From an uncultured Candidatus Saccharibacteria bacterium (lineage in GTDB: Bacteria; Patescibacteriota; Minisyncoccia; CAIUEV01), in contig CAZRPR010000006.1 in NCBI GenBank assembly GCA_964602125.1, positions 2,108-37,959 on the forward strand: a stretch of 35,852 nt of DNA. Direction: 5' to 3'. How positions within the stretch are numbered: position 1 is the stretch's first letter; every line of letters starts with the position of its first letter. The notes beneath the pieces are model-generated. The model saw only the letters and a list, made by a program, of their open reading frames with translations, ran no database searches and was not told the DNA's origin. Of this stretch, positions 7,981 through 27,132 are shown in pieces. The translations under genes and the position numbers were made by a program.

Positions 7981-8013
7981 TCTTGCGTAATTCTTGCGTG
8001 ATTCTTGCACGAT
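7981..8013. repeat. Three tandem 11-bp repeats
   Basis: TCTTGCGTAAT / TCTTGCGTGAT / TCTTGCACGAT, abutting the stop codon of Fic gene 3. Confidence 0.8.
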
Positions 8014-9143
8014 TATTTATTCTTAAACAAATTCAAATATTCCTCCAATGAATAAAGTCGATTACGAGAGAAGCCAGTAATTTCTTTCAGAAGACCGAGT
8101 TTTTCAAGTGATGCTAAGAGACTATTGGCTGTATTAAAAGTGACTCCAAATTCTTTCATAATGGTTTTTGACCCGACGATCGGTTGAGAAAACAAAAACA
8201 AAAGCACCTCGCCAGAAATTTTTGCACGTCTGCCTAGCGTCAATATTTTATTTTCATAACGCTGTCTCAAATCAATTATCTTCTGGAAAGTATTCTTTCC
8301 GCTTTTAGCAGTTTCGATAATACCGCTCAGAAAAAATTTTATCCATTGTTCTAGATTATTTGACACCCTGACCATAGTCAACGCATCATAATATGCGCCT
8401 TTATTTTTTTCAAAAAAAGCAGACAGATAAAGCGTGGGTTTGTTTAAAATCTCCCTTTCAATAAATTGTAAAGATACAATTAGTCTCCCAATTCTACCAT
8501 TGCCGTCCAGAAACGGATGGATAGTTTCGAACTGATAATGGCAAATGGCAATTTTAATGAGAAGCGGAATATTAAGATTTTTGTTGTGCCAGAACTTTTC
8601 CCAATCAGCCAGAAGCCCCGGCAGTTCATCTTTGTGTGGTGGAACGAAAAAAGCATCAACAAGACCTGAGCCACCAATCCAATTTTGGCTGTTCCTGATT
8701 TCACCTGGATGCTTGTATTTTCCACGTACTCCGGAAAGCAAAGCTTTGTGAGTTTCCCGAACAAGCCTTATGGACAAAGGAAGCTTTTCCAACTGCCCGA
8801 TGGCGTACTCCATGGCCTTTATATAATTTTGAACCTCCTGCCAATCATCACGTTTTTCCAAGCCGACCTCTTCTTTGGGCAATATAGCTTCATCTACGCC
8901 AGTTTTAGTCCCTTCAATACGGCTAGAAATAGTTGCTTCCTTAACAGCATGCATTTTGATAAAAAAATTAACGTCTGGAACTAGGATGGAATAGGCATTC
9001 AACTCTCCTAAATACCTCATAGCTTCTTCCAGGAGAAGGTTAATTTTTTTGTCCTGAAAATCAAATTCATGATTTATGAAATTCGGACTGAAGCTTTTGT
9101 ATTCAAATTGTTGCTTATATTTTCCAGCAATAAATTTGTTCAT
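8013..9143 (-). CDS. Fic-domain protein (SoFic-like: N-terminal domain, Fic core, C-terminal wHTH)
   Basis: [12 protein letters not shown]; SSRIEGT; FVPP; C-terminal [18 protein letters not shown] at 9143 preferred over TTG at 9173, which lies inside the operator repeat. Confidence 0.92.
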
Positions 9144-9147
9144 CTTT

Positions 9148-9201
9148 TTGAGATATAAATTATTATATCTCAACTTTATTGATTTTTTTGAGATATGTCA
9201 A
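9148..9201 (-). promoter_or_regulatory. Promoter/operator of Fic gene 3
   Basis: TTGACA (9196-9201) -17 bp- TAAAGT (9173-9178); inverted repeat TTGAGATATAA-ATTA-TTATATCTCAA (9148-9173) plus a third TTGAGATAT half-site (9188-9196). Confidence 0.7.
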
Positions 9202-9251: not shown

Positions 9252-9261
9252 TGGCTGGGGC
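9252..9261 (+). repeat. Left att core of the tRNA-Gln island
   Basis: TGGCTGGGGC, identical to 21665-21674, which is the reverse complement of the tRNA-Gln 3' end. Confidence 0.75.
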
Positions 9262-9318
9262 TAGTGGATGTATTTAGGAATTTGAGATTGGGGGAAATTG
9301 AAATGGAATTAGAGAATC

Positions 9319-10455
9319 TTAAGGTTGGATGTTTACCAGCTTAAGTTTCTCTATTTCCTTAAAATAAGGGCTTTTTTTTAATTGGTTTTGAAATTCTTTT
9401 TTGAAATTAATTTTTTCCTTTTCACTATTTGACCAAGCTTGATCCAAAAATTCCCAAGCTAATTTTTCGTTGCTTGTATAAATTAAGTCCAGCATATAAC
9501 CCCAAAGAATAGGGGAGACTCCCACTATTTCGCTATTTATCGCTCCGTCTTCATCTGATTCTATTAATGCAATCTTTTTACTAAAATCTTCTTGAGTTGG
9601 CGCAGGCTTTTTCATCAAATCAAGATTTAGTTTGAAAGAAGATGATTCTTTGTCGTAGCTTAAGATTACTTCGGGGGCAGGGGATGTGGCGTAAGCAGTT
9701 TTCCAATAATTAAAAGTTGAATCAGATCCTATTAATTCATAAATGCCGTCATCGTTCACATCTTTCGATAAAAGACCGTGGTCTCTTTCATCTAAATTTA
9801 GCGCCTTCACACCTTTTTCTTCTTTAATAAAAGCCCTGTATTTCCAACAACAATGGGCTCCACCAGTAAAGGTTTCTTCGAGTATATCGGGAATTTTATC
9901 GCCGGAGAAATCACCGACAGAAAAAGCATAGGGCTCTGACCAATCTTTAATGGGATAATTTCTTACTATTTTTTGCAATTCCACTTCCGGAACACATCTT
10001 TTGAAAACCGTATTTTGATAAGCGCAGGTAATACCAGTCCATTTGCCAGTCACTTCGACATTTCCTTCCAGGACTACGTGTTCTGGAAAGGCATCGGAGT
10101 TAATCCCGGCGTAAAAATAAGGAAAGTCTTTGTCTTCAGGGATTTTTTTAATCCCATAGCTTTGTCCGCTCATGAATACAGCCATAATCTCTCCTTCCCA
10201 AACGACATCAATCGGTTTATCAAAAGTCGTTTCTTCTTTGTCTTTTCCAACAAGCTCAGCTTTTCTGGCTTCTTCGGTGTTTTCTGTTGTTAAATTTTGA
10301 GAGATTAATTTTTCTTTTGATGCTTCCATAGCAGTTTTTCCGCTATTTTTGTTGCTGGAATAAATAACAAAAATTACGCTGAAAATGAGTGCAATGGTCA
10401 AAATTAAATTAAGCACAGTAAAATTTTTTCCATCAGGACGTTTTGAGTTTTTCAT
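9319..10455 (-). CDS. Membrane-anchored exported hypothetical protein
   Basis: N-terminal TM helix; FG-GAP/DxDxDG-like loops (GDFSGDKIPDIL, KDVNDDGIYELI); TGGAHCC motif. Confidence 0.75.
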   Translation of the reverse strand: MKNSKRPDGKNFTVLNLILTIALIFSVIFVIYSSNKNSGKTAMEASKEKLISQNLTTENTEEARKAELVGKDKEETTFDKPIDVVWEGEIMAVFMSGQSYGIKKIPEDKDFPYFYAGINSDAFPEHVVLEGNVEVTGKWTGITCAYQNTVFKRCVPEVELQKIVRNYPIKDWSEPYAFSVGDFSGDKIPDILEETFTGGAHCCWKYRAFIKEEKGVKALNLDERDHGLLSKDVNDDGIYELIGSDSTFNYWKTAYATSPAPEVILSYDKESSSFKLNLDLMKKPAPTQEDFSKKIALIESDEDGAINSEIVGVSPILWGYMLDLIYTSNEKLAWEFLDQAWSNSEKEKINFKKEFQNQLKKSPYFKEIEKLKLVNIQP

Positions 10456-10482
10456 GGAAGATTAATTAATATTTCTGATTAT

Positions 10483-11031
10483 TTATCCGTAAGTGATAGA
10501 CTTATGAAGATTATCCTCGAAAATTCTTTTTGACTCATCATAACTCACATGAAAGTTCATTATATCAAAGAAAAGCGTTCCGTCGGGCAGGTAATACAGG
10601 TAATGTCTCGTTATACCAGACATATTATTTCTAAGAGGGCCCTTGTCTAGACGTTTAATTTCAGAGACTAATTTGCCTTCTACTTTAGAGTAAACAAGCA
10701 TATTGCCTTTATCTAGGGCAAGTACTAGATTGACATTGAATTTCGAGGGCATATTTTTAAAATCAAACTCAAACATCTTGTAGCCTTCGTATGGTTCCGA
10801 TACTGGGAAAATTGTTTCCTTTTCGGGATCAAGTAGCTTTGCGTCTTCTAAATAGAAAGCAATAAAAACTTCGCTGTTGTTAAAATAAGCGTTGTGTGGT
10901 TTGTTTTTCGACTTCAACTTAATTGTCTCTAATTTAGATGAATCCGGCTTTATTTTTTCTATTCTTCTTTTCAGACCTTCATTGAACAGACTTTGCGCTA
11001 TTTCTTGCTTTACTAATCTCTTGTTGGACAT
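10483..11031 (-). CDS. Hypothetical protein, paralog of 11108-11578
   Basis: Shares TIKLKSKxKP..AY.NNSEVFIAF.LED, VYSKVEGKL.SEIK and YYLPDGTLFF with its neighbour. Confidence 0.75.
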   Translation of the reverse strand: MSNKRLVKQEIAQSLFNEGLKRRIEKIKPDSSKLETIKLKSKNKPHNAYFNNSEVFIAFYLEDAKLLDPEKETIFPVSEPYEGYKMFEFDFKNMPSKFNVNLVLALDKGNMLVYSKVEGKLVSEIKRLDKGPLRNNMSGITRHYLYYLPDGTLFFDIMNFHVSYDESKRIFEDNLHKSITYG

Positions 11032-11107
11032 ATTTATCTTTATTTAAGAGTAAATTTTTACTATTCAGACTTTCTCTCTCTTCCACAGTTAAGTATTGCT
11101 CAAAACA

Positions 11108-11578
11108 TTAGGGCAGAAAAGTTTTAAGCCAACGCTTAATCATCTGCCACCTTGTATAGCTGACCATGGGGCAATATTCTGTGTATTTCAATATTTCAAA
11201 AAAGAGAGTTCCGTCTGGTAAATAATATTTGTGAAGCTGTGATTTTCCAACTACACTTTCTGAAGTGCCAGAGCTTGAATATTTAATCTCAGAGATAAGC
11301 TTTCCCTCAACTTTGGAATATACAGTTAGATTGCCTCTCTTGAGAGCATTTGCAAAAGAATATTGATAAGACCGAGGCATTTTGTCAAGGTTGAAATCAA
11401 ACATTCGACAGCCTTTAAGAGGCTTCGGAATATCAAAAAGGGCTTTTTTGCTAGGATCGAGTGGTTTTGTATCTTCAAGGTGAAAGGCGATGAAGACCTC
11501 ACTATTATTGTAATAAGCGTCTTGAGGCTTATCTTTTGATTTTAGTTTAATCGTTTTTAGTTCGGGCTGGGAACTCAT
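11108..11578 (-). CDS. Hypothetical protein, paralog of 10483-11031
   Basis: Same shared blocks as above. Confidence 0.75.
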   Translation of the reverse strand: MSSQPELKTIKLKSKDKPQDAYYNNSEVFIAFHLEDTKPLDPSKKALFDIPKPLKGCRMFDFNLDKMPRSYQYSFANALKRGNLTVYSKVEGKLISEIKYSSSGTSESVVGKSQLHKYYLPDGTLFFEILKYTEYCPMVSYTRWQMIKRWLKTFLP

Positions 11579-11785
11579 ATTGTTTTAGATATTTATACTC
11601 TAACTTATTTATACATCTTTTTTTTGTTTGGATATCAAATTTATTCTCTTTGGAGAATGAAACTTGGAAAGAGAAGGACTCGCATAATTCTTTATTTTCT
11701 TTAAGAAATGAAAAACTAAATTGATTTTTAGCTTTATTTGAGATAGAATTTAAGAAATCAAGACTGAAATAATTTTAAAAATGTA

Positions 11786-12883
11786 ATGAAAAACGTAATT
11801 GAAATTTTAGAGAGATATTACAAACCGTTTATTGACGAAAAGAACGAATGGAATTTTTTTCTCGGTCTTGCGGACTATGTTAAGTTTATTGCGGAAAATA
11901 AAGAATTTACACCTATACTTTTGAATATAAAGAAACAAAAAGAGAAAGATTATAAAAAGCTTGTTGATTTGGAAAAAAGGGTGGCAAAAGAGCTTGATAT
12001 CTCAAAGAAGCGACTGCTTGAAATCATAAAGAAGAACAAAATATCTTATGAATCGCTTAATAATGAGTTGAGAAAGTTAAAAACTTTTGAAGAGGGTGGA
12101 ACAGAAGGTGAAAAATACAAAGTTATGATACTAGACGATATTCTATTTAGTATTGCAAGAGATATGGTAAATAATGGGCATTCGAAAATTTTACAAGAAT
12201 TTGTTGATAACAACAGAGAGCCACAGAATATTTTTGGAAACTTTGTTTTTTCTAAAACAATTCATTTATTTGTGAGGGAACAAGAAAGAGTTGATTTTAA
12301 GAAAAAAACAGAAGCTTGGGGAATATGGGATAAATTATACGAACTTTATCTGGTAACTTATAAAGGTGACGAGATAGAAAAAGACTTTGAAAAAAATAAA
12401 AGCAGTTCGCTTTTGATCACAAGCTTTTGGTTATTGAAAGGTGAATTACTGAACATGCAGAAAGGACAAGATACAAAATATAAAATTTTCGATATAGATG
12501 AATATCGACAATCTTCAAACAGGATACACAATTTCTTTCTTAAAGAGATATATGGCACTTCTAATGATGAAGAGGAGACAAATGTTTTATCTTTTCAAGG
12601 TGGTATTCTTAATTTTCAAGGTAAAAAAATTAGCATAAGCCAAAGAGGAAAGACAGCAAGACCTTATGACCTCTTAGAGCTTATTTTTACCGATAAAGAC
12701 AAAGTATGGAACTACGATGAAATATGGGATACGCTTTTGGGAAATGAATACGATCCAAAAAAATGGAGAACAATTTATTATGCAGGAAGAAAGATAAATG
12801 AAGCTGTGGCTAAGAAAACCACAGTAGATGATTTTTTAGAAATTACTAAAAAAATAATACAAATAAAAAACCAATATCTCTGA
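11786..12883 (+). CDS. Hypothetical protein with C-terminal OmpR/PhoB-like winged HTH (putative element regulator)
   Basis: C-terminus LLELIF...VWNYDEIWD...TIYYAGRKIN resembles a Trans_reg_C fold; N-terminal domain not recognised. Confidence 0.6.
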   Translation: MKNVIEILERYYKPFIDEKNEWNFFLGLADYVKFIAENKEFTPILLNIKKQKEKDYKKLVDLEKRVAKELDISKKRLLEIIKKNKISYESLNNELRKLKTFEEGGTEGEKYKVMILDDILFSIARDMVNNGHSKILQEFVDNNREPQNIFGNFVFSKTIHLFVREQERVDFKKKTEAWGIWDKLYELYLVTYKGDEIEKDFEKNKSSSLLITSFWLLKGELLNMQKGQDTKYKIFDIDEYRQSSNRIHNFFLKEIYGTSNDEEETNVLSFQGGILNFQGKKISISQRGKTARPYDLLELIFTDKDKVWNYDEIWDTLLGNEYDPKKWRTIYYAGRKINEAVAKKTTVDDFLEITKKIIQIKNQYL

Positions 12884-12884
12884 A

Positions 12885-12961
12885 GTTTACAAACTGTTTA
12901 GAAACTTTTGTAAACCACTTTTTTGCTAACCTGAAGATGTAATATCCTCAGGTTATTTTTT
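12885..12961 (+). promoter_or_regulatory. Triple near-palindromic 10-bp sites plus a hairpin (operator, origin or terminator)
   Basis: GTTTACAAAC (12885), GTTTAGAAAC (12896), TTTTGTAAAC (12906); hairpin TAACCTGAAGAT-GTAAT-ATCCTCAGGTTA (12927-12955) followed by Ts. Confidence 0.6.
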
Positions 12962-13141
12962 ATGTCTGAAAAAGATAAACAATTTTACGAAAATCTAGCA
13001 GGCGAGCCACTTTCAGAGCAAGAGGCTTTTGAGGCGAAGAGTAACTTTGTGGGATTTTTCGATTTGCTTTTTGAAATAGACCAAAGAATTAATGAAAAAA
13101 ATTATGACCAAGATAACAGAAATTCAAATTATACCGATTAA
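12962..13141 (+). CDS. 59-aa small protein missing from the ORF track
   Basis: MSEKDKQFYENLAGEPLSEQEAFEAKSNFVGFFDLLFEIDQRINEKNYDQDNRNSNYTD*; fills the gap and overlaps the SpoVG-like gene. Confidence 0.7.
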   Translation: MSEKDKQFYENLAGEPLSEQEAFEAKSNFVGFFDLLFEIDQRINEKNYDQDNRNSNYTD

Positions 13142-13421
13142 GCCAATAAACGGCCTCGTGGGATTCGCCAGCGTGGTTCTGGACGAGAAAATCTATCTCA
13201 GCTCAATTGGGATACACAAAAGACTAAACGAAGAAGGCTACAGGCTTACTTATCCGACAAGAAAAGTCGGGAATAAAAGCTTAAACATATTTCATCCGAT
13301 CAGCCGAGAAGTCAGTTTAGCTATCGAGCAGGCAATAATAACTAAAACAACAAGCTTATTTAATAAAAAAGTAATGAACTTCAATGCTAGACACAGTTAT
13401 TTTAACCATTCCAATGGGTAA
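13104..13421 (+). CDS. SpoVG-like nucleic-acid-binding protein
   Basis: KITEIQIIP...LVGFASVVLDE...IGIH...RLTYPTRK...IFHPISRE...IEQAII matches the SpoVG pattern; ATG at 13104 (alternative start 13092). Confidence 0.8.
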   Translation: MTKITEIQIIPIKPINGLVGFASVVLDEKIYLSSIGIHKRLNEEGYRLTYPTRKVGNKSLNIFHPISREVSLAIEQAIITKTTSLFNKKVMNFNARHSYFNHSNG

Positions 13422-14544
13422 ATTTCAAATCCAAAGACCAGAGTATTTCCAACCCCATGCAAACTATATTTTAAATAATAATTATTATTTAAAAGCTTTT
13501 AATAACCCTAGAAGACCGAAATGTTCAGAATATTTCCCCCGACTAACTTTATATCGAAGACCTTCTAGAATCTCCTCTGCTGTCGAACTAAAAATAGAAT
13601 TTTCCGCTCCAAAAATTATTTTTCAAAACAATCTGGACGAATTAGATGAAGATTATTTCTCAAGGATTATCGAACTGTTGCACTTAAGAATAATGGCTAT
13701 GGGAACAGATATTTCTCACGAAAATTTAGCTAACGCTTCCGTCTCTTCTTTTCATCCCTCAAAGAATATAAAGCTTTCGGGATATTGGACAGCAACCGCA
13801 GTCATAAAAGAATTAAACAAGCTGGCCATTCCAAAAATCTTTGATCTGGATAACAAAGATTACAACAACGGCGGGCATTCCTTACAATATTACACCAATT
13901 CCCATTCTTTGGTTTTCTACGACAAGATAACCGACATGGGGAAGCCCGCAAAAAGGTCAATAGACAAAGAAAAGACAGGCCTTCAAACAGAGCTTTTTAA
14001 GAAATTTGAGGAGGTTAGAAGAGAAAAATCAGGAAACCCAATCGAAATACTGCGAATGGAAGTCAGACTTTCCAAAAAGAGAAAAATGAATAACATTCTT
14101 CAAAAATTAGGCTATTCGACTGACCCCTGCTTTAGGGAAGTTTTCAATAAAGAGCTTTGTCAAAAGATACTAAAGGAATATTGGAAGGAATTGGTGCTGA
14201 AACAGAATTTATTTCTGCTCAGCAGTAATAATAATCCGCAAAAAATTCTAGAAAATACTTTAAAAAATAATCCATCAATGCAATTAAAACAGGCGATCCA
14301 CGAAACGGGATTGATTGCCTTAGCCAAAGACGAAGAGGGGATGAGAGGTCTCAGGCAAGTTATTGAAAGTAAATTCAGCACGAGAACTTGGTATAGAACA
14401 GAAAAAGAAATTAAAGCAATGAGCGAGGACTTAACACCGAGCGATTGCTATGAATTTGTAGGAGATATTTCAAAAAGCATCGAGGAATTTAGAAGCTTTC
14501 ATTACAATAATTTGATTAGATTTAATAATTACTTAAAAACTTGA
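13384..14544 (+). CDS. Phage/plasmid replication initiator, gene II/X (Rep_trans-like) family
   Basis: N-terminal LDT, KIEFSAPKI..xNN, LVFYDK and ILRMEVRL blocks in the order typical of gpII/X-type rolling-circle initiators. Confidence 0.65.
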   Translation: MLDTVILTIPMGKFQIQRPEYFQPHANYILNNNYYLKAFNNPRRPKCSEYFPRLTLYRRPSRISSAVELKIEFSAPKIIFQNNLDELDEDYFSRIIELLHLRIMAMGTDISHENLANASVSSFHPSKNIKLSGYWTATAVIKELNKLAIPKIFDLDNKDYNNGGHSLQYYTNSHSLVFYDKITDMGKPAKRSIDKEKTGLQTELFKKFEEVRREKSGNPIEILRMEVRLSKKRKMNNILQKLGYSTDPCFREVFNKELCQKILKEYWKELVLKQNLFLLSSNNNPQKILENTLKNNPSMQLKQAIHETGLIALAKDEEGMRGLRQVIESKFSTRTWYRTEKEIKAMSEDLTPSDCYEFVGDISKSIEEFRSFHYNNLIRFNNYLKT

Positions 14545-14568
14545 CTGTAAACAATTGTAAAGTATAAT
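14541..14568 (+). promoter_or_regulatory. Sigma70 promoter of the HTH-mod-res-integrase operon
   Basis: TTGACT (14541-14546) -16 bp- TATAAT (14563-14568), with TGTAAA direct repeats 10 bp apart in the spacer region. Confidence 0.75.
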
Positions 14569-14598
14569 TAGATTAAGACACACGGATAATTTAAACTT

Positions 14599-14787
14599 AT
14601 GGAAAAACAAGATAAAGACAAAGAATTTTACACAGCCAAAGAACTGGCGGAAAAATTAAGAGTGAATGTAATGACGATCTACCGTTATATTGATGCTAGT
14701 AAGCTGGAAGCTTATAAGATTGGGAAGGAGTTTAGAATTGAGAAAAAAGAGTTTGAGAAATTTCTTAATAAGGTAAAAACTAGATAA
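14599..14787 (+). CDS. Excisionase-family (HTH_17) DNA-binding protein
   Basis: YTAKELAEKLRVNVMTIYRYI...KLEAYKIGKEFRI. Confidence 0.88.
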   Translation: MEKQDKDKEFYTAKELAEKLRVNVMTIYRYIDASKLEAYKIGKEFRIEKKEFEKFLNKVKTR

Positions 14788-14791
14788 TTAC

Positions 14792-17302
14792 ATGAAAAAA
14801 ATTAACGAAAATAAATTCTACAAAGCACTGGAAAACATCTTTACTGGTGCTAACATTGAAGGTGAGTCTGGCTATGTCAATCTTCTTAAAATTAAGTCGA
14901 GCTATTACAAGCTAATTTTGGAACAATTCAAGAAAGATGTTGGCAAAGAAACAATAATTACCGATTCTTTCAAGGAGGAGTTTTTTGATAAACTCTATTC
15001 TTTTTTTGAAAAATATTTTTCAGAGTCTGGCAGCGTGTATTTTGTCAAAACTGCCAACTGGCAAAGAGTGTACGAGCAAGTTTACACTGACAATAAAGAT
15101 GTTGTACTGTTTTGGAAAACCCATATGCTCTATTATGTTAAGAGCGATATTTTATTTCAAAGCATTGATGTGGAAATAGAAGATGAGGAAAACAAGCAGA
15201 AATACAATTTCTTTTTTGATGTTGGAAGTCTCCAAGCCAAGCAGAATAATGAGAAAAAATCTCTTGTTTTTACTTTTCGTAAAGTCAGAGAAGAAAAAAC
15301 CAGCGAAGAAGTTTTAAACGAGAAACAAGGTAAAAAAACTTATATTTTTGACGTGGCTTATAGTGAAAGAGGGAACAAAACAAAAGTTGAAGATATTGCC
15401 AAAACGACCAAAATTCCTGAACCAATAGTTGAGAAAGCTCTAGCTACTTTCCGTAAACAGTCCGAAGTTGATTTCTTTATCAACAAAAATGCTGAGAAGT
15501 TTTTGAGCGAACAGTTGGATATGTATTTACACCAAATTTTGCTAACGGAAGAAAACAAATTTGAGCAAAAAAGACTTGATCAAATCAAAATAATAAAAAC
15601 CTTTGCCAATAAAATTACAAAATTCATCGCTCAATTTGAAGATGAACTGGTGAGAATATGGAACAAACCAAAATTTGCCTTAAATAGCAATTATGTTATT
15701 ACTATAGACAAGCTTTCCGAAGAGCTAATCAAAAAAATCGCCAAACACAAGAATTTACCCGAGCAAATCAATGAATGGCAGGAGTTGGGAATGGTTGATA
15801 AAGGCTTTGATTTTACAAAAAGAGAAGATAAACACAAACACTTACCAATCGACACTAAATACTTTAAAGACTTAGAAATAGAGATTCTTAATCTATCCGA
15901 AAATCTAGACGAAGCACTTGATGGAAGATTAATCCACTCTGAAAACTACCAAGCACTTAACACTTTACAAGAAAAATACAAAGAAAAAGTACAGTGCATC
16001 TATATCGACCCGCCATTTAATACAGGAAATGACTTTGCTTATGTCGATAAATTTCAAGATAGCACTTGGCTTAGCTTAATGAATGACAGAATAAAGACTG
16101 CTAGAAAATTCTTGAAAGATGATGGAAGTTTTTATTTACATTTAGATGATAACGCAAATGATTACGGAAAAAATATTATCAAAAAACTATTTACCGAGAT
16201 AGTAGAAATCATATTTGATACAAACTCCACAAAGGACGAAGAGGCAGATTTGTTTGGTTATAAAAGTTTTGGTAAAAATTTTATTCTAAAACATCAAACC
16301 ATATTCTTCTGTAGAAATGAAAATTATAAATTCAACAAATTGTGGAAACCAAACAGAAACACAACAGGGCTAGGAATAGGATGGCTCGATCTTATCGCAG
16401 AAAAAAAAATAGATGTAGAAAGACCACAGAAAATTGAAGACTTTAATTATTTTATTGAATGCTGGGAAAATAATAATTTAGTTAGAAAGCAAATCAACGT
16501 TAATGAAAAATTATTTCCCGTTGGTGATATATGGAATGACATATTTTCTTTTACTCAATCCGAAATGAGAGTGAGTGAAAGCTTTGCTTTCAGCTCTTCT
16601 CAAAAACCAGAAAATTTAATTAGAAGAGTTTTCCAATCCACAACTGACCAGAAAGATTACATCTTAGATTTTTTTGGGGGGCTCGGAACTTCTTTTGCTG
16701 TAGCTCACAAGCTTAATAGAAAATATTTAGGTATTGAACTAGGACAACATTTTAACGAATTTTATACTCAAGACAAAGAAAGAAAAATGGGTATTCTCGG
16801 AAGAATGAAGTGGGTATTGTACGGAGATCAAAAGATTACTGTCATTGATAAAGCGAGAAGACCTCATTTATCAAAAGACATAGATTGGCAGGGCGGTGGT
16901 TTCTTTAAATATTACTCCCTCGAGCAATACGAAGATACTCTTCGCAATATGAAATATAAAGATAGCTCTCCAAACAGTATTTTTGATAATCGCAAACCTT
17001 TCGAACAATATGCTTTTTACGCTGATCAAAAATTTGCCAATGTTTTGGAAGTGAAGAAAGACGAATTGGAAATAAATTTTGATAAGCTCTATCCAAACAT
17101 TGATTTCGCCGAAACCATTTCAAACTTGCTTGGATTACCAATAAAAAAAATCACAAAAACAAGTGTTATTTTGCAAGAAGGGGAAGAGGAAAGTAAGAAT
17201 TATAGTGAAAGAGAAATCAAGATCGATTATAAGAATATGACCAACGAAGAAAAACTGGCCTTTGTGAGACTGCTTAAACCCTTGCTTTGGTGGGGTAAAT
17301 AA
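14792..17302 (+). CDS. mod: Type III R-M system adenine methyltransferase (Mod)
   Basis: IYIDPPFNTG (motif IV) precedes LDFFGGLGT (motif I); QKPENLIRR; WQGGGFFKYY; directly upstream of res. Confidence 0.9.
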   Translation: MKKINENKFYKALENIFTGANIEGESGYVNLLKIKSSYYKLILEQFKKDVGKETIITDSFKEEFFDKLYSFFEKYFSESGSVYFVKTANWQRVYEQVYTDNKDVVLFWKTHMLYYVKSDILFQSIDVEIEDEENKQKYNFFFDVGSLQAKQNNEKKSLVFTFRKVREEKTSEEVLNEKQGKKTYIFDVAYSERGNKTKVEDIAKTTKIPEPIVEKALATFRKQSEVDFFINKNAEKFLSEQLDMYLHQILLTEENKFEQKRLDQIKIIKTFANKITKFIAQFEDELVRIWNKPKFALNSNYVITIDKLSEELIKKIAKHKNLPEQINEWQELGMVDKGFDFTKREDKHKHLPIDTKYFKDLEIEILNLSENLDEALDGRLIHSENYQALNTLQEKYKEKVQCIYIDPPFNTGNDFAYVDKFQDSTWLSLMNDRIKTARKFLKDDGSFYLHLDDNANDYGKNIIKKLFTEIVEIIFDTNSTKDEEADLFGYKSFGKNFILKHQTIFFCRNENYKFNKLWKPNRNTTGLGIGWLDLIAEKKIDVERPQKIEDFNYFIECWENNNLVRKQINVNEKLFPVGDIWNDIFSFTQSEMRVSESFAFSSSQKPENLIRRVFQSTTDQKDYILDFFGGLGTSFAVAHKLNRKYLGIELGQHFNEFYTQDKERKMGILGRMKWVLYGDQKITVIDKARRPHLSKDIDWQGGGFFKYYSLEQYEDTLRNMKYKDSSPNSIFDNRKPFEQYAFYADQKFANVLEVKKDELEINFDKLYPNIDFAETISNLLGLPIKKITKTSVILQEGEEESKNYSEREIKIDYKNMTNEEKLAFVRLLKPLLWWGK

Positions 17303-17324
17303 TTTTAGCTTGACGAGAATAACT

Positions 17325-20192
17325 ATGAAAAATACTTTAGAAAAAATAATCGAGGAAAAAAGCTATGATGACTTAGGACTATGGTGTTTGCCAAACTTGA
17401 GCAAGTTTTCCGACGCCAAAAATCTCTACGAATACCAAATAAACGCTCTTAAAAATATTACCAAAGTGTTGCATGAATATTTTGGAGAGAAAAAAGAAAA
17501 CGAAGACAGGAAAAAACATTTATTCGATTTATATAAACAGTATGGGTTGGATAATAAAAGTTTTTCCGTAAATAAATTTGCAAGCAGGACGGATAGACAA
17601 AACGATAAAATAAATAGCAGATTTTCGCTCTTCCAAAATCATTTCAAAATTTTCGGTGATGGAAATGACGAATATATTTCAGGAGCGAATTTTATGAATC
17701 GTGCCTGTTTTTGGATGGCAACAGGGAGTGGTAAAAGCCTTGTCTTAATAAAGACTATTGAACTTTTGGACTATCTCCAATCGCAAGGATTACTAGACAA
17801 AAAAGAGATCTTGCTTTTGCTCCCTCGCGAAGACCTTATAAAACAATTTGGCAAAGAAGTCGATGAGTTTAATAAGGGAAGAGAAAGACGCCTTGAACTT
17901 ATTAATTTGAAAAAGTATGAGGACGACAAACAAGGCTTTGCCTTTAATAACAGTATTAAAATCTATTATTACAGAAGTGATTTAATTAGAAACGAGAGAA
18001 AAGAGAGCATTCTTGATTATAAAAGTTATGAAAATAACGGTAATTGGTATGTATTCTTAGATGAAGCACATAGAGGAGGAAAAGAGGACTCACTAATGCA
18101 AGATTATGTTTCTATTTTAAGCAAAAATGGATTTTCTTTCAACTTCTCGGCGACTTTTACCGATAGCATAGATTATCTTACGACTTGCTATAATTTTAAC
18201 CTTGAAAAATTTATTCTAGCAGGCTATGGAAAGAATCTATATCTTAGCCAATCGTATTTTGATTTCAACAAAGAGAAAGACGATTTTAGTGAAAGAGAAA
18301 AACAAAAACAAGTAATGAAAGCTCTGATAACTTTTTCTATCGTTAAAAAAGCTAAAAAAGAAAAAACTTATCACCATCCGCTAATGATAGCCTTGGTCAA
18401 TTCGATTAACACAAACGACGCCGATTTACTCATCCTTTTTAATAAGCTAGAAGAAATCGCTATCGGAAAAACTGATGAGCAATTATTTAAAGAGGCTAAA
18501 GAAGATATTTTAATTGATCTCCAAAACCATATCTCTTATGTTTTCGGAGAAGAAAAACTTTATTTTGAAAAGGATATTTTGAGAGAGCTGAAGCCTAAAG
18601 ACATTTTCGAAATGGTTTTTAATGCTTCAGATCAAGGCAAAATAGAGCTCATCGAAGGAGAAAAAGGCAAAGAAATCATTTTAAAATCAGAAAACAGCGA
18701 AAAGCCTTTTGCTCTTATTAAAATTGGAGATGCAGGTAAATTTAAAAAAGAACAGTTAGGAGATGGCTATGCTGTTGTGAAAGGTTTTTACAACAAGAAA
18801 TTCTTTGAAGAGATTAACGACAGTGAAGATATAAATTTGCTCTTAGGAAGTAGGAGTTTCTATGAAGGTTGGGATAGCAATCGTCCCAATGTTATTAGCA
18901 TGATAAATATAGGGAAGCAAGACGCTAAAAAGTTCGTTTTACAAGGAATTGGAAGAGGAATTAGAATCGAACCATTCAAAGGCGAGAGAAAGAGACTGCC
19001 TCAAAATCATGCAGATAAAAATATTTTACTTGAAACATTGTTCGTTTTTGCAACTGATAAAAATGCCGTTAAGGCAATTATAGAAACCGTGGAAAACGAA
19101 AAAAACACCGACGAAGTAGAAATATCACTTTTTGAAAACAAGAAAAAACCTTTTGATTTACTTATTCCTGTGTATGAAGATGAGAAAACGAGAGGAAAAA
19201 TTGCCAAATTTAATATAGAAGCGGAAAGTTTGGAGCGTTTTAAAAACTATCTCGAATCTTTTGACACAAACACCTTGCTTGTTAAAACTGGCATACCTCA
19301 AAAAGACCTCGAATTTTTGCTAAAAGAAATAAAAAACAATGCTTTTTTTCAAATCAAGGAAGAGAATATCTATAGCGATATGGACTTGCTTTTGCAAACA
19401 ATGACAAGCCATGTTTCTGTTAAAAATAAATTTGTGTCGGGAATTAAAGAGGTTGCCGATGAAATAATACACTTTAAACACATAAAAGTTATTAATTTTA
19501 GTGATTCTGATCTGCAAGTTTTTAAAGATGAGATTGAAAAGGTCGGCAATTATGAAGAGATTAAAGAATCGGACATAGACGAGCTTTTCGATAAAGGAAA
19601 AATCAGTAGAGAAGAATATAAAAGAAGAATTAAGGCTGTCGATAGAAATAAATCGGAATCAAGCTTCAAAGATCTTAAAATAAAAAAGATTGCCGAACAT
19701 TATTATTTACCCATTATCTATTCAGAAAAGGAAAAAATAGAATATATCAAGCATGTTATTGAAGTGACCAGTGAAGTAACTTTTATTAAAAACTTAGAAA
19801 AACATCTTGAGTCAAACAAACCTGACTGTGATTGGATGTTTAGTAAGCTCGATCAGAATCTAGATTCCTTTCATCTTCCATATTTTTACAAAAAAGAAAA
19901 TATTTATCGGAAATTTTTTCCAGACTTCATCTTCTGGATTAAAAAAGACAATAATTATAGAATCATTTTCATAGACCCAAAAGGTACCACTAACGCAGAT
20001 TATCAAAACAAAGTGGATGAATTTGAAAAATTATTTTCAGAAAATGGCAAAGCCAAAGTCTTCAAATATAAGAATTTCAAAATAACTTTCGATTTAAAAC
20101 TTGTAGCTCAAGACGTAAACAATGTAAGTGAAAAATATGAAAAATATTGGCTTGGAAATAAAGATTTTGGATTTTTAAAATATAATTTATGA
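17325..20192 (+). CDS. res: Type III R-M system restriction subunit (Res)
   Basis: MATGSGKS, LDEAH, FSAT, EGWD, QGIGRGIR helicase motifs; C-terminal FFPDF...FIDPKG PD-(D/E)xK nuclease. Confidence 0.9.
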   Translation: MKNTLEKIIEEKSYDDLGLWCLPNLSKFSDAKNLYEYQINALKNITKVLHEYFGEKKENEDRKKHLFDLYKQYGLDNKSFSVNKFASRTDRQNDKINSRFSLFQNHFKIFGDGNDEYISGANFMNRACFWMATGSGKSLVLIKTIELLDYLQSQGLLDKKEILLLLPREDLIKQFGKEVDEFNKGRERRLELINLKKYEDDKQGFAFNNSIKIYYYRSDLIRNERKESILDYKSYENNGNWYVFLDEAHRGGKEDSLMQDYVSILSKNGFSFNFSATFTDSIDYLTTCYNFNLEKFILAGYGKNLYLSQSYFDFNKEKDDFSEREKQKQVMKALITFSIVKKAKKEKTYHHPLMIALVNSINTNDADLLILFNKLEEIAIGKTDEQLFKEAKEDILIDLQNHISYVFGEEKLYFEKDILRELKPKDIFEMVFNASDQGKIELIEGEKGKEIILKSENSEKPFALIKIGDAGKFKKEQLGDGYAVVKGFYNKKFFEEINDSEDINLLLGSRSFYEGWDSNRPNVISMINIGKQDAKKFVLQGIGRGIRIEPFKGERKRLPQNHADKNILLETLFVFATDKNAVKAIIETVENEKNTDEVEISLFENKKKPFDLLIPVYEDEKTRGKIAKFNIEAESLERFKNYLESFDTNTLLVKTGIPQKDLEFLLKEIKNNAFFQIKEENIYSDMDLLLQTMTSHVSVKNKFVSGIKEVADEIIHFKHIKVINFSDSDLQVFKDEIEKVGNYEEIKESDIDELFDKGKISREEYKRRIKAVDRNKSESSFKDLKIKKIAEHYYLPIIYSEKEKIEYIKHVIEVTSEVTFIKNLEKHLESNKPDCDWMFSKLDQNLDSFHLPYFYKKENIYRKFFPDFIFWIKKDNNYRIIFIDPKGTTNADYQNKVDEFEKLFSENGKAKVFKYKNFKITFDLKLVAQDVNNVSEKYEKYWLGNKDFGFLKYNL

Positions 20193-21664
20193 AAGCAATA
20201 ATCCTCGCCAGAGTATCAACCGAAGAGCAAAGGGAAGCAGGGAACTCTCTACCCGCTCAAGTTGAGCGTTTGAAGAGCTATTGCAAAAGAAAAGGCTTTG
20301 AGATTGTAAAAACTTTTAGCTTCGATGAAAGTGCCTACAAGACCAAGCGGGACGAGTTTGATAAGATTCTCGAGCATCTTAAAGGCTCAAAAGAGAAAAT
20401 CGCAGTTTGCTTTGATAAAGTGGACAGATTATCAAGAAATGTTTTCGATAAAAGGGTTTCGTTGCTCTACGAAAAAGCTATTGCCGATGAAATTGAATTA
20501 CATTTTGCTTCAGATGGTCAGGTTATAAGCAACAACATGTCGGCCGTTGAGAAATTTCAATTCGGAATGAGTCTTGGTCTGGCTAAATATTATTCCGATG
20601 CTATCAGCGACAACGTAAAGAGAGCTTACGAGCAGAAATTACGCAATGGCGAATGGATTGGGAAAGCTCCGCTGGGATATAAAAACATCGATCTAGAGAA
20701 TGATAAGAAATCAATCGTGGTCGACGAGAGCAGGGCATTTTTAATAAAAAAACTTTTTGAATTATATGCCAGCGGTAAATATTCAATGAAAACACTAACA
20801 AAAGAAATGGCAAAGCAAGGGCTGAAAGGCACAAAAACTGGGGAGCCGATAGCCACCAGCCAAATGGAAAAAATTCTGAAAAATCCCTTTTATTATGGAA
20901 CAATGCGAGTTAAGAAACAATTATATCCTCACAACTACGACCCTATAATTTCTCGCTATCTATTTAATAAAGTGCAAGAAGTCATTAACAGCTATAACCG
21001 ACAAAGATTCAAAAGAACCAACAAACCTTATATTTTTCGAGGATTACTCAAGTGTTCTGATTGCGGATATACCGTTAGCCCTTACACCAAAATAAAGAAA
21101 AACGTCCTTGTTTATTATCGATGCACCAACTACGGTGGTAATTGTAAGAATGTTACCAACATCAAAGAAAAGGAGCTTGTCGATCAAATAGCGGAAGTGT
21201 TTAAGAGTATAAAGCTGGAAGACTCAGTCGTGGATAAATTGAAAGACGAACTGAGAAGAACTCACGAATCGGAAAAAAAGTTTTACGAACAAAGCTTGAG
21301 AACTATTAAAAATAAGCTCGAGAATATCGATAGAAGACTGAAAGTCATGTATGACGATAGATTGGACGGACGTATTACTACGGAAGACTATGACAAGAAA
21401 GTGAAAGAATACGATTCAGAGAAACAAGATTTAATGATTCAGTACGAAGAACATAATAAAGCCGACATAAACTTCTATATTACGGCCAGCAGAGTGCTAG
21501 ACCTGTCCAACAGAGCTTGGGAAATCTTCCAAAGTTCTGAACCAGAAGAAAAAACTCAACTTCTCAAATTTGTACTTAAGAACTTAGAGCTTAGAGGCAG
21601 AAAGCTTGTCTATGAGCTAAAAAATCCCTTTCAAGGGATAGTCGAATACCAAAAAACTGGAAAT

Positions 21665-21679
<15 letters not shown>
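20189..21679 (+). CDS. Large serine recombinase (integrase); 3' end runs into tRNA-Gln
   Basis: LARVSTEEQ catalytic Ser, DRLSRN, APLGY, ILKNPFYYG recombinase domain, CSDCG...YYRC zinc ribbon, coiled coil; stop codon lies inside the tRNA. Confidence 0.95.
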
Positions 21680-21739
<60 letters not shown>

Positions 21740-25584: not shown

Positions 25585-25669
25585 GGAGAGGTCGCATAGT
25601 GGTCTAGTGCGTCTGACTTGAAATCAGATGTGTCGCAAGGCACCCAGGGTTCGAATCCCTGCCTCTCCG
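25585..25669 (+). tRNA. tRNA-Ser (TGA), CCA not encoded
   Basis: GGAGAGG/CCTCTCC acceptor stem, TCTGA-CTTGAAA-TCAGA anticodon arm, long variable arm, GTTCGAA T-loop. Confidence 0.96.
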
Positions 25670-25803
25670 CATCTACAATTTTGTATCGTGCAGACTCACA
25701 CGCCTGCAGTATTGAAGCTATGTTTGGGCAATTTTGGTTACAAATGAAAAAGGCAATAATGGCAATAATTGTTGTCTTTTTTCTTTTCCCGGCTTATTTA
25801 AGT

Positions 25804-27132
25804 TTAAGCCACTAGTTTTAGTTTCTTATCTTTGTAAATTATCTTCGATCTCAAATTTCCCAGCAATTCCCTTTTTTCCGAAACCGCTCCTTCTTTAAGT
25901 AGATATTTAGCGTAATTTCGAATATTTGTTTCTTTACTAGTCTTTATCTCAAAACTTTCTCCCATAACCGATCTTTGAAAAATATTGAATCTGGTAATCT
26001 CATCTTCCAGTTTTTGCCTCATTCCCAGCTCGTTAATATCCATTTTATCGATAATTTTTAGCAGTTCCGTAATTAAATCTTCCTCCCGAATATACTTGTT
26101 TTTGCAATGTCGATCCCTAGCCCTTGAGCAGGAATAATAGATGTACTTGGCATGAGTGCCGTCTTTAAGCAGTTTGTATTTTTCTTCGGCTGATATACCC
26201 GATCCGCAATGGCCGCAGGTGAAGAGTTTAGTAAAGGAAAATTCATGGTTTTGCCTTACGATTTTGTCTCTTTTCAACCACGCTTGAGCTTTTTCGAAGA
26301 GTTCCTGGGTAATAATGGGTTCATGTTTTCCGGTATACCAGTTACCACCCTTGATTGGATATTCAAATATTCCGTAATAAAAGGGGTTATCCAATACTCG
26401 ATAGACACCGGCCAGTGTCAGTGGTTTGTTACCCCTGGTGTAGAAATTGAGTTCATACCTGAGCCAGTGGTAAATCTTTCTGCCTGAATAATGTTCATGG
26501 GCTACTTTTTCAAATATTTTTCTGATGGCCGGCGCTCTTTGGGGATCTTGGATAACTTGGCATTTTTTGTCCATATGTTTTTGATTGAGGTATCCTAGCG
26601 GAGCGACAGTCGGCCATAACCCCATTTCACATCTAGCTCGGAGTCCTCTTTTTACGTTAATTCCTCGATTATCGTTTTCTAATTTAGCCTGAGAACCCAA
26701 TATCATCAGAAGGAACTTCTCATTAGGAGAATTAGTGAATCTTTGCCCGTAAGTCCGGATTTCTTTTAATGCTCCGCTATCCATAAGGTCAACTATTTTC
26801 CCCAGATCTCCGGCGTTTCTTGATATACGATCCGGTGCCCAGGTGAGGATCCCGTTGAATTTCTCTTGCTGGATTTCTTCCACAATCTCGTTAAAGACTG
26901 GTCTTTTTCCGGTTTCTTTGGCTGAATGGGATTCCCGCTTGATATTAACGATATTTAGGTTTTCCCGCTCAGCTAGATTCAGCATTTCTTTGATCTGCGA
27001 ATCGATTGATAGTATCTGTCTTTCCTCAGATTCAGAGCTTTTCCGTGCGTAAAGGCAGTAATTTACTACTTCTTGTTTTACCGGTTGATAGCTGGGAGCT
27101 ATATTTTGGATCTGTTGAGTAGCGACATTCAT
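25804..27132 (-). CDS. Large serine recombinase
   Basis: YARKSSES, DRISRN, APLGY, VLDNPFYYG, HEPII, CGHCG...YYSC zinc ribbon. Confidence 0.94.
   Translation of the reverse strand: MNVATQQIQNIAPSYQPVKQEVVNYCLYARKSSESEERQILSIDSQIKEMLNLAERENLNIVNIKRESHSAKETGKRPVFNEIVEEIQQEKFNGILTWAPDRISRNAGDLGKIVDLMDSGALKEIRTYGQRFTNSPNEKFLLMILGSQAKLENDNRGINVKRGLRARCEMGLWPTVAPLGYLNQKHMDKKCQVIQDPQRAPAIRKIFEKVAHEHYSGRKIYHWLRYELNFYTRGNKPLTLAGVYRVLDNPFYYGIFEYPIKGGNWYTGKHEPIITQELFEKAQAWLKRDKIVRQNHEFSFTKLFTCGHCGSGISAEEKYKLLKDGTHAKYIYYSCSRARDRHCKNKYIREEDLITELLKIIDKMDINELGMRQKLEDEITRFNIFQRSVMGESFEIKTSKETNIRNYAKYLLKEGAVSEKRELLGNLRSKIIYKDKKLKLVA

Follow-up and report, generated by a model that had tools for sequence, protein, structure and literature searches.

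A large serine recombinase gene that appears to cross its own attachment site at the 3' end of a tRNA-Gln gene, and a detachable C-terminal tail that recurs across its family

The tRNA-Gln locus and its recombinase gene

We analyzed a stretch of 35,852 nucleotides (hereafter, the window) from an uncultured Candidatus Saccharibacteria bacterium (GenBank assembly GCA_964602125.1, contig CAZRPR010000006.1, positions 2,108 to 37,959 of the forward strand), in which a gene for a large serine recombinase (LSR) runs into the 3' end of a tRNA-Gln gene and has what appears to be a detached C-terminal segment far upstream. The LSR open reading frame (ORF) lies at 20189-21679 on the plus strand; in this integrated, short form it encodes 496 amino acids with the C-terminus GNWLGR*, and its stop codon, TAG (21677-21679), is located within an antisense tRNA-Gln(ttg) that ARAGORN finds intact at 21665-21739 on the minus strand. 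The last four LSR codons and the stop codon extend over the 3' end of the tRNA gene.

Only two exact copies of TGGCTGGGGC exist in the window, one at 9252-9261 and the other at 21665-21674 (plus strand in both cases); 0.02 matches are expected by chance, and none of 100 dinucleotide-preserving shuffles reaches two copies. Given the position of the tRNA gene, this repeat corresponds to the CCA end, the discriminator and six acceptor-stem bases of the tRNA; the copy at 21665-21674 (+) is the putative attR core, and the copy at 9252-9261 (+), a distal version of the tRNA-Gln 3' end, is the putative attL core. Past position 9261, the LSR frame encodes LVDVFRNLRLGEIEMELENLKVGCLPA, i.e., 27 open codons with a stop at 9342-9344. 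The segment 9252-9344 (+), consisting of WLG, LVDVFRNLRLGEIEMELENLKVGCLPA and the stop codon, is in the LSR frame only when position 21664 is joined to 9252; the circle predicted from this joint would be 12,413 bp long (21664-9252+1) and would encode a long form of 522 amino acids (495+27). The repeat, the 496-residue LSR ending in GNWLGR*, the 27 open codons and both predicted sizes had been given in an initial annotation of the window, and all of them proved correct. By our estimate, 27 open codons arise by chance roughly once in seven cases; because this DNA has a G+C content of 35%, the run taken by itself is weak evidence, and the weight lies on the comparison with the family.

The LSR contains the Pfam domains Resolvase (PF00239, 2.5e-22, residues 3-156), Recombinase (PF07508) and Zn_ribbon_recom (PF13408). 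All of them (residues 3-337) remain in the integrated ORF, and only the last 27-30 of the 522 residues are displaced. Residues R8, V9 and S10 of the catalytic domain are invariant in the family alignments, in which the cysteines C289, C292 and C312 are conserved as well. These are the domains of serine recombinases only, with nothing of the tyrosine recombinase chemistry, and the scores against the NCBIfam models SCCmet_CcrB (105.6 bits, cut-off 900) and XisF (108.7 bits, cut-off 375) place the protein outside the CcrB type. By its domain set, the protein is a large serine recombinase, for which catalysis of attP x attB recombination is predicted; the free and provirus forms of a related phage, described below, are indirect evidence for it.

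We consider it probable that 9252-21674 is a 12.4-kb integrative element at the 3' end of tRNA-Gln, with an LSR gene that crosses its own attP; the activity of the element and its enzyme we infer. The crossover must fall inside the 10-bp block of identity, of which approximately positions +0 to +6 are common to all family members.

Read-through, tails and DNA states across the family

Among 8000 candidates scored, at least 2598 proteins are homologous to the LSR at E<=0.001, and the best 120 are mostly 492-540 amino acids long. The C-termini of the homologues very often read WL(R/P/G)xxDSNLxP, which is the translation of an antisense tRNA, where W is TGG (the CCA end) and DSN corresponds to the T-loop. 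We compared 78 genome loci, from the candidate phyla radiation (CPR)/Patescibacteria, Dependentiae and others, and 25 viral loci. In 57 of the 78 genome loci, there is an antisense tRNA with the LSR stop codon inside it or beyond its 3' end; the targets are tRNA-Asn (30 loci), Gln, Glu and Asp (8 each), Arg (2) and Tyr (1). The remaining genome loci comprise 8 with read-through but no ARAGORN call, 6 with an uninterrupted conserved tail unrelated to a tRNA, and 7 others. With tRNA-Pro as the target in one viral locus, at least seven tRNA species are used. Judging from these sequences, an LSR gene that crosses its own attP appears to be a conserved, family-wide design, not a local accident. The initial annotation had pointed to tRNA-terminating LSRs as the place to look for conserved in-frame tails at the distal att site, and such tails were indeed found family-wide.

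The tail can be read directly in ORFs that do not enter a tRNA, where its consensus is WLPhhDxFRThNWxxIxxEL. A natural long form, P0015, is encoded on a 6.4-kb contig, has 522 amino acids, is 65% identical to the window LSR and has the C-terminus ...KEWLPIVYMFRRLELKKMEESLEILKLSLSQYAI. Its AlphaFold2 model (mean pLDDT, the predicted local distance difference test, of 89) contains two long helices, 343-390 and 396-447, in line with a coiled coil inserted in the zinc-ribbon domain. For binding of the tail to the LSR body, a predicted complex (alignments A4 and A3; score 0.14, mark 0.32) speaks neither for nor against. A search with its residues 455-522 yielded 16 proteins among 37 candidates, with the tail carried by P0015 alone; therefore, long forms are rare among predicted proteins. 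When we looked for DNA repeats, the region upstream of the integrated LSR proved to contain a tRNA-end copy that leads into an in-frame tail in the window and in L021 (with an 18-nt repeat), L027, L029, L034, L046, L055, L060 (three times) and L077. A hidden Markov model (HMM) of the tail, built solely from 16 uninterrupted long forms, detected 21 further tails at E<1, all of them upstream of the LSR and on its strand, and the first match on the opposite strand had E=1.2; one iteration later, the LSR strand had 39 matches at E<1 and the opposite strand had none. Residues 11-30 of the window tail, which lie outside the att half-site, resemble the tails of relatives in shuffle tests (p=0.0004 for L005:4490 and for L026, p=0.001 for L017 and p=0.0016 for L008).

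The composition of the tails suggests that they are translated. From +39 nt onward, the tail frame has a median of 20 open codons, whereas the medians of the two alternative frames are 9 and 4 (n=31, Mann-Whitney p=2.5e-5), and the tail length is 26-37 amino acids in 28 of 31 cases. The entropy at the three codon positions is 1.43/1.26/1.61 bits at +27 to +54 and 1.70/1.50/1.81 bits at +54 to +84; the second position is less variable than the third in 15 of 19 tail codons (one-sided sign test by hand, p~0.01), and a hydrophobic position at +45 is fixed in the middle base only (1.57/0.33/1.69). The pooled ratio of nonsynonymous to synonymous differences per site (pN/pS) for tail codons 11 onward is 0.46 in 9 pairs. 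An in-frame upstream ATG is missing from 23 of the 31 distal tails, and 17 of the 31 have no ATG, GTG or TTG; therefore, these are not genes of their own and could be translated only as the continuation of an ORF upstream. Beyond approximately +27 nt, the signal in the tails is, on this sequence evidence, most readily taken as that of a translated region.

Both DNA states occur in relatives of the element. Two viral contigs, L091 and L092, match at 100% identity for 11,606 nt before diverging inside the TGGCTG core. IMG/VR classifies L091 as a provirus and L092 as a sequence with direct terminal repeats; the provirus ORF enters tRNA-Gln (567 amino acids), and the ORF of the free genome continues (596 amino acids) into a tail related to those of L086-L090. 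One phage is seen here in both states, free and integrated; the L091 record stops short of the far end of the provirus, and the attL of that phage lies outside the data. At L021, an element is present twice in tandem; the copies are 100% identical in the LSR (1464 nt) and in the 682 nt preceding it, and the upstream LSR runs on without a break into its own tail. This is a perfect tandem of a 9.3-kb element (683-2242 and 10001-11470) in a 188-kb contig of a metagenome-assembled genome. Two origins are conceivable, a true tandem and a path of the assembler through a circle and a prophage, and under both of them the attP junction is present in that sample. The layout is thus observed together with its conservation and both of its states in relatives, and the family layout, the phage pair and the tandem bear out the earlier proposal that an att site lies within the LSR gene and that the C-terminus is exchanged.

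Tails have also been found in other arrangements. At L028 (5826-7487), a distant LSR (26% identical to that of the window) is fused in frame to the tail of a neighboring 3.2-kb element; therefore, successive insertions at one tRNA gene pass tails between integrases. At L060 (2005-2046, 2367-2426 and 4272-4364), L005 (3640 and 4490) and L063 (3051 and 3732), one LSR is preceded by two or more consecutive tails, and L033 also holds two. These multi-tail loci are element arrays or decayed remnants stacked at one tRNA gene. No exact terminal repeat of 12-300 nt was found in any of the 24 whole-contig loci.

The first ~10 tail codons appear to double as the P' half-site of attP, so that the tail would be both a peptide and a DNA site, and a part of the tail conservation is, therefore, a DNA constraint. 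In the window, the putative P' half-site (TAGTGGAT..TAGGAAT) occupies 9262-9290 (+), and it looks like a mimic of the tRNA arm with the T-loop-like motif located 5 bp farther out than in the tRNA. In L021 and L091/L092, the P' and tRNA arms agree at every base up to and including GCTGGAC, after which the P' arm has ~5 extra bases and then TCGAAC or TCAGAAC. Across 22 integrated loci, the tRNA arm has the start of the GAAC motif at +20; in the tail arm, the start lies at +25 (12 loci) or +24 (4 loci), which amounts to shifts of 5 bp and 4 bp, respectively. One further locus has a shift of 2 bp, and the motif was not found in 5 of the 22. In the window, the GAAC-type motif is located at +20 (tRNA arm) and +25 (tail arm), the same geometry as in L021 and L091/L092. 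Given this shifted geometry, F-R-T (TTC AGA ACT) is largely a DNA motif.

The shift resembles what is known from other serine integrases. For phiC31, a 5-bp shift of the zinc-ribbon domain register in attB has been described, and the shift of GAAC in the tail arm appears, from the alignments, to be this attB/attP register difference of the serine-integrase zinc-ribbon domain. The putative P half-site lies in the last LSR codons (21636-21664 (+), ..ATAGTCGAATACC..) and was placed by the left-arm motif of the family, in which GAACT at approximately -21 to -17 is inverted relative to AGTTC at +19 to +23. The complementarity of the half-sites peaks at the centers +0.5 and +4.5 (0.355 and 0.354, compared to a background near 0.25), which leaves the center of symmetry ambiguous. 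Short inverted half-sites with a 5-bp register difference of the outer motif, the arrangement of serine integrases, are found here.

Working peptide, attachment-site DNA or chance

Several observations weigh against a working tail in an element that still moves. The P' half-site encompasses LxDxFRT, the part of the tail with the strongest conservation, which may be kept as DNA. The tail of the window matches the general tail HMM weakly (E=9.1, and 1.6 after iteration), with FRN and LRL in place of the consensus FRT and LNW; the pair of the window and L005:4490 shows no synonymous excess (pS 0.31, pN 0.34, 17 codons), and an in-frame ATG at 9195 permits a separate 49-residue ORF. In the P0015 model, confidence in the tail is low (pLDDT ~57-63; two helices, 495-500 and 503-517). 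In addition, a conserved excisionase-like gene of the element, described below, could control directionality without any role of the tail. To these points should be added the outcome of a search for the junctions. Four sequencing runs from one study contain the stretch, two of which may be the source of this DNA, and their assembled (Logan) contigs were compared with the window; neither the circle joint 21664/9252 nor an empty site (skipping 9262-21674) was found in the assembled contigs of the four runs, a result that says nothing on excision because contigs drop rare variants. The integrated form is contiguous in contigs of runs X1 and X2. A contig over 21661-21740 with 8 differences proved to be the tRNA-Gln of another organism.

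If the att assignment is right and the tail is not a working peptide, it would be conserved as the DNA of the attP P' half-site, with the rest of the frame carried along. The low confidence in the tail model and the lack of a purifying signal in the window/L005 pair are consistent with this explanation, as is the finding that the tRNA acceptor/T-arm recurs, with a shifted register, in the best conserved tail codons (CTG..GAC..TTC AGA ACT); moreover, four tails have R replaced by G and keep the DNA motif NGAAC. However, conservation extends beyond any known serine-integrase half-site, with W at +36 to +38, a hydrophobic residue at +45 and E-L at +54 to +59, and the open frame, the narrow length range and the pooled pN/pS all point to translation. 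TGA never occurs at the variable base of the NGA codon, as is expected for a translated codon. We regard this explanation as unlikely.

It is very improbable, in our judgment, that the 10-mer and the open frame arose by chance or that the element is a fixed remnant with its true borders elsewhere. The lack of a junction for the window element in assembled contigs and the fact that a run of 27 open codons, taken alone, is no rarity in AT-rich DNA would fit such an origin, and leftover tail arrays without an LSR in several relatives (three tails in L060; two each in L005, L063 and L033) indicate that decay occurs. On the other hand, the second copy of the 10-mer was absent from all shuffles; the window tail stands at the family position, at the far end of a syntenic backbone, and resembles the tails of relatives; the LSR, the tail and the tRNA gene are all intact; and related genomes have no insertion at tRNA-Gln. 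These are two genomes of the same genus, G001 and G002, which share the tRNA-Gln gene and its right flank and have no LSR there, and their identity to the window starts at 21667. The left flank of the window has only scattered matches in G001, ~3-4 kb from tRNA-Gln, and the relatives are too distant; these matches are compatible with the proposed left border and are no proof of it.

In the tRNA-Gln genes of G001 (C63) and G002 (C16), the CCA is not encoded, and the discriminator is followed by C and then TGATGA. The occupied tRNA-Gln gene of the window does encode the CCA (21665-21667), which is the conserved W codon of the LSR. Integration may alter how the 3' end of this tRNA is made.

The ends of the tails bear on one more explanation, that the tail is chiefly a C-terminal degradation tag, which would make the free-form integrase short-lived and the prophage form stable, as in mycobacteriophage BPs. 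The initial annotation had likened the -LPA end of the window tail to a ClpX-type degron. This likeness is not supported: the 31 tail ends are unconserved (the last residue is A in 6 of the 31 distal tails, no end motif recurs, and no dipeptide occurs more than twice), and in the genome, which is 87% complete, neither a ClpX over the family cut-off (the best match has 25 bits versus 371) nor a tmRNA for a comparison of tags was found. The presence of ClpP in the same genome and the abundance of non-polar residues at the tail ends are consistent with a tag, as are the -AA ends of a viral subgroup (HLAA, AIAA, KVAA), PMAA in L099 and VLAA in a short tail of L060; there is, however, no conserved end, and the conservation lies in the N-terminal and middle parts of the tail. 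A tag as the chief role of the tail is quite improbable. It should be noted that the long-form tails of the viral contigs L086-L090 and L099 end in -AA, unlike most genome-borne tails.

Element backbone, precedents and direction control

The window element shares with 28 elements a syntenic backbone, to which the LSR also belongs. An excisionase-family helix-turn-helix (HTH) protein of 62 amino acids (14599-14787 (+)) matches TIGR01764 (47.7 bits, cut-off 28.8), PF12728 and phrog_66, and is present in 22 of the 28 elements; it also matches the MAD1 model below its cut-off. We consider it a candidate directionality factor or regulator. A 386-residue protein (13384-14544 (+)) without a Pfam match has homologues in 20 of the 28 elements. 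Among its look-alikes in the Atlas, PF05144 (Phage_CRI) occurs in 25-31% of the members (score 0.96-0.97), which offers a lead to a possible rolling-circle replication initiator. Phage_CRI/G2P is the family of rolling-circle initiators of filamentous phages, and the look-alikes hint that the excised circle replicates. The same order is kept by ORFs of 365 amino acids (11786-12883 (+); 11 of 28 elements) and 59 amino acids (12962-13141 (+); 18 of 28) and by a SpoVG-like ORF (PF04026; 13092-13421 (+); 7 of 28).

Between the HTH gene and the LSR gene, there is a restriction-modification-like pair of cargo genes identified by Pfam: an N6/N4 DNA methylase (14792-17302 (+)), with homologues in 12 of the 28 elements, and a ResIII/SNF2 helicase-type protein (17310-20192 (+)). 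Together with the HTH gene, they look like restriction-modification or methylation-associated defense cargo (14599-20192). Three ORFs on the minus strand (9319-11578), without a Pfam or PHROG family, form variable cargo, and the first of them shares 26 bp with the end of the tail. A Fic/DOC-family gene (8013-9173 (-); Fic_N, Fic and HTH_13) adjoins the element just beyond its left border; its homologues are scattered in relatives with 66-74% DNA identity, and it may itself be mobile. On the other side, a gap of 133 nt separates the 3' end of tRNA-Ser(tga) (25585-25670) from a second LSR that faces it (25804-27132 (-); 442 amino acids; 30% identity to the first; 1e-63 match to phrog_95, integrase), in a similar layout without overlap; no repeat of the tRNA-Ser end of at least 10 nt was found to the right of this LSR.

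Returning to the element at tRNA-Gln, we propose the following sequence of states. The host is a small-genome bacterium of the CPR/Patescibacteria type. In a circular or tandem form, the LSR gene would encode 522 amino acids, the last ~30 of which (WLG-LVDVFRNLRLGEIEMELENLKVGCLPA) would be the tail module of the family. The attP P' arm would copy the acceptor and T-stem bases of the tRNA in register, with the T-loop-like GTTCNGAAC ~5 bp beyond the position of the real T-loop, and the integration crossover would take place inside the W-L-G codons, i.e., the CCA end plus the acceptor stem. After integration, the tail would stay at attL, 12.4 kb away, and the gene would extend into the antisense tRNA by a single codon (...WLGR*). 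Which isoform is made would thereby depend on the DNA state: the long form would be the enzyme selected to act from the free element, i.e., for integration, and the short form of the integrated element would have a changed or reduced activity. The conserved 62-residue HTH protein may be a separate excision factor.

A more specific version, which we offer tentatively and hold to be rather doubtful, is that the tail is a built-in directionality device. The tailed enzyme, made from the free circle, would recombine attP with attB, and the tail-less enzyme of the prophage, acting alone or with the 62-residue HTH protein, would be locked or shifted toward attL x attR; the T-loop motif would be the target of the zinc ribbon, the tRNA-mimicking attP would enable hopping between tRNA species, and tandems would rebuild tails or exchange them between elements.

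The initial annotation had drawn analogies with the SSV integrases and with the repressor of mycobacteriophage BPs, which are apt; the integrase IntP of the Myxococcus phage Mx8 is closer still. Mx8 reportedly targets the 3' end of a tRNA-Asp gene, with about 112 residues of the integrase replaced by 13. According to a study of Mx8 (PMC6070905), attP lies within the integrase's coding region, integration creates a recombinant gene with a new 3' end, and IntP, with altered properties, is still made, a change that was proposed to regulate integration and excision. The locus studied here likewise has an ORF across attP that acquires a new 3' end upon integration while its catalytic part stays whole. 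In contrast to Mx8 IntP, a tyrosine recombinase with a long arm-type attP, the present enzyme is an LSR with a short attP of two half-sites, the exchange involves only ~27-30 residues, and the trait is the mark of a large family with at least seven target tRNA species. For the SSV-type ('suicidal') integrases, PMC7253208 describes an att site that is translated within the gene and split on integration, with a proposed role in the control of directionality; they are tyrosine recombinases, described there as confined to archaea, the gene falls into two inactive halves, and gene-rebuilding tandems were, according to the same source, not observed. The window gene is not split into two inactive halves: the catalytic and DNA-binding domains stay together and only the C-terminal module is lost, and tandem copies that rebuild the full gene are seen at L021.

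Among serine recombinases, the nearest precedent is DsiB of the Dehalococcoides ssrA islands, the gene of which always overlaps attL at the ssrA end; its authors (PMC3146451) suggest that the protein is perhaps fully functional only on the circle, describe the ends as divergent and doubt the function. The target of DsiB is tmRNA (ssrA), and no conserved detached tail was reported, whereas here there are a conserved tail, a coding signature and both DNA states; DsiB was set apart by this description, and the sequence of the window LSR was compared with the CcrB model.

The gene split in BPs is that of the repressor, the integrase is a tyrosine recombinase, and a degron role is unsupported in the present case. 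An ssrA-like tag is said to be removed from the BPs product on integration. According to PMC4557955, attP lies inside the gene and integration alters the C-terminus of the product. The canonical serine integrases (phiC31, Bxb1, A118/LI and SPbeta) have the same domain set as the window LSR, and their att sites likewise consist of two half-sites, with an outer motif located ~5 bp farther out in attP than in attB. In canonical phages, attP lies outside the int gene, the targets are protein genes or intergenic DNA, and directionality depends on a separate recombination directionality factor. The Islander paper (2014) states that tRNA genes were not among the known targets of serine recombinases, and it cites the Mx8 and SSV integrases as extending across attP. 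Our literature search found neither a tRNA-targeting serine integrase family with attP in the gene nor a conserved detachable tail; it did not cover supplements (Islander/TIGER and LSR surveys), which may list such elements, and an earlier report of such a family in supplements or uncovered papers is conceivable.

The structural half of this proposal is well supported by comparative evidence from sequences, and the functional half is hypothesized, with no support for the degron detail. Serine integrases are prized for working strictly one way unless a separate directionality factor is present, and the control of direction in small elements without an obvious factor is an open question in the field. 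Here, the C-terminus of the enzyme would report whether the element is free or integrated, a layout that is known in tyrosine integrases (Mx8 and SSV) and was noted without functional evidence for one serine recombinase, DsiB. The family targets tRNA genes, contrary to the Islander statement, and the mimic of the tRNA arm with its 5-bp register shift would provide a readable rule for the choice of target. The family also offers dozens of natural pairs of long and short isoforms and of attP and attB sites, which might yield self-limiting integrases for genome engineering. It also marks a type of mobile element that is common among CPR, Dependentiae and similar bacteria with small genomes, in the present case with restriction-modification-like cargo.

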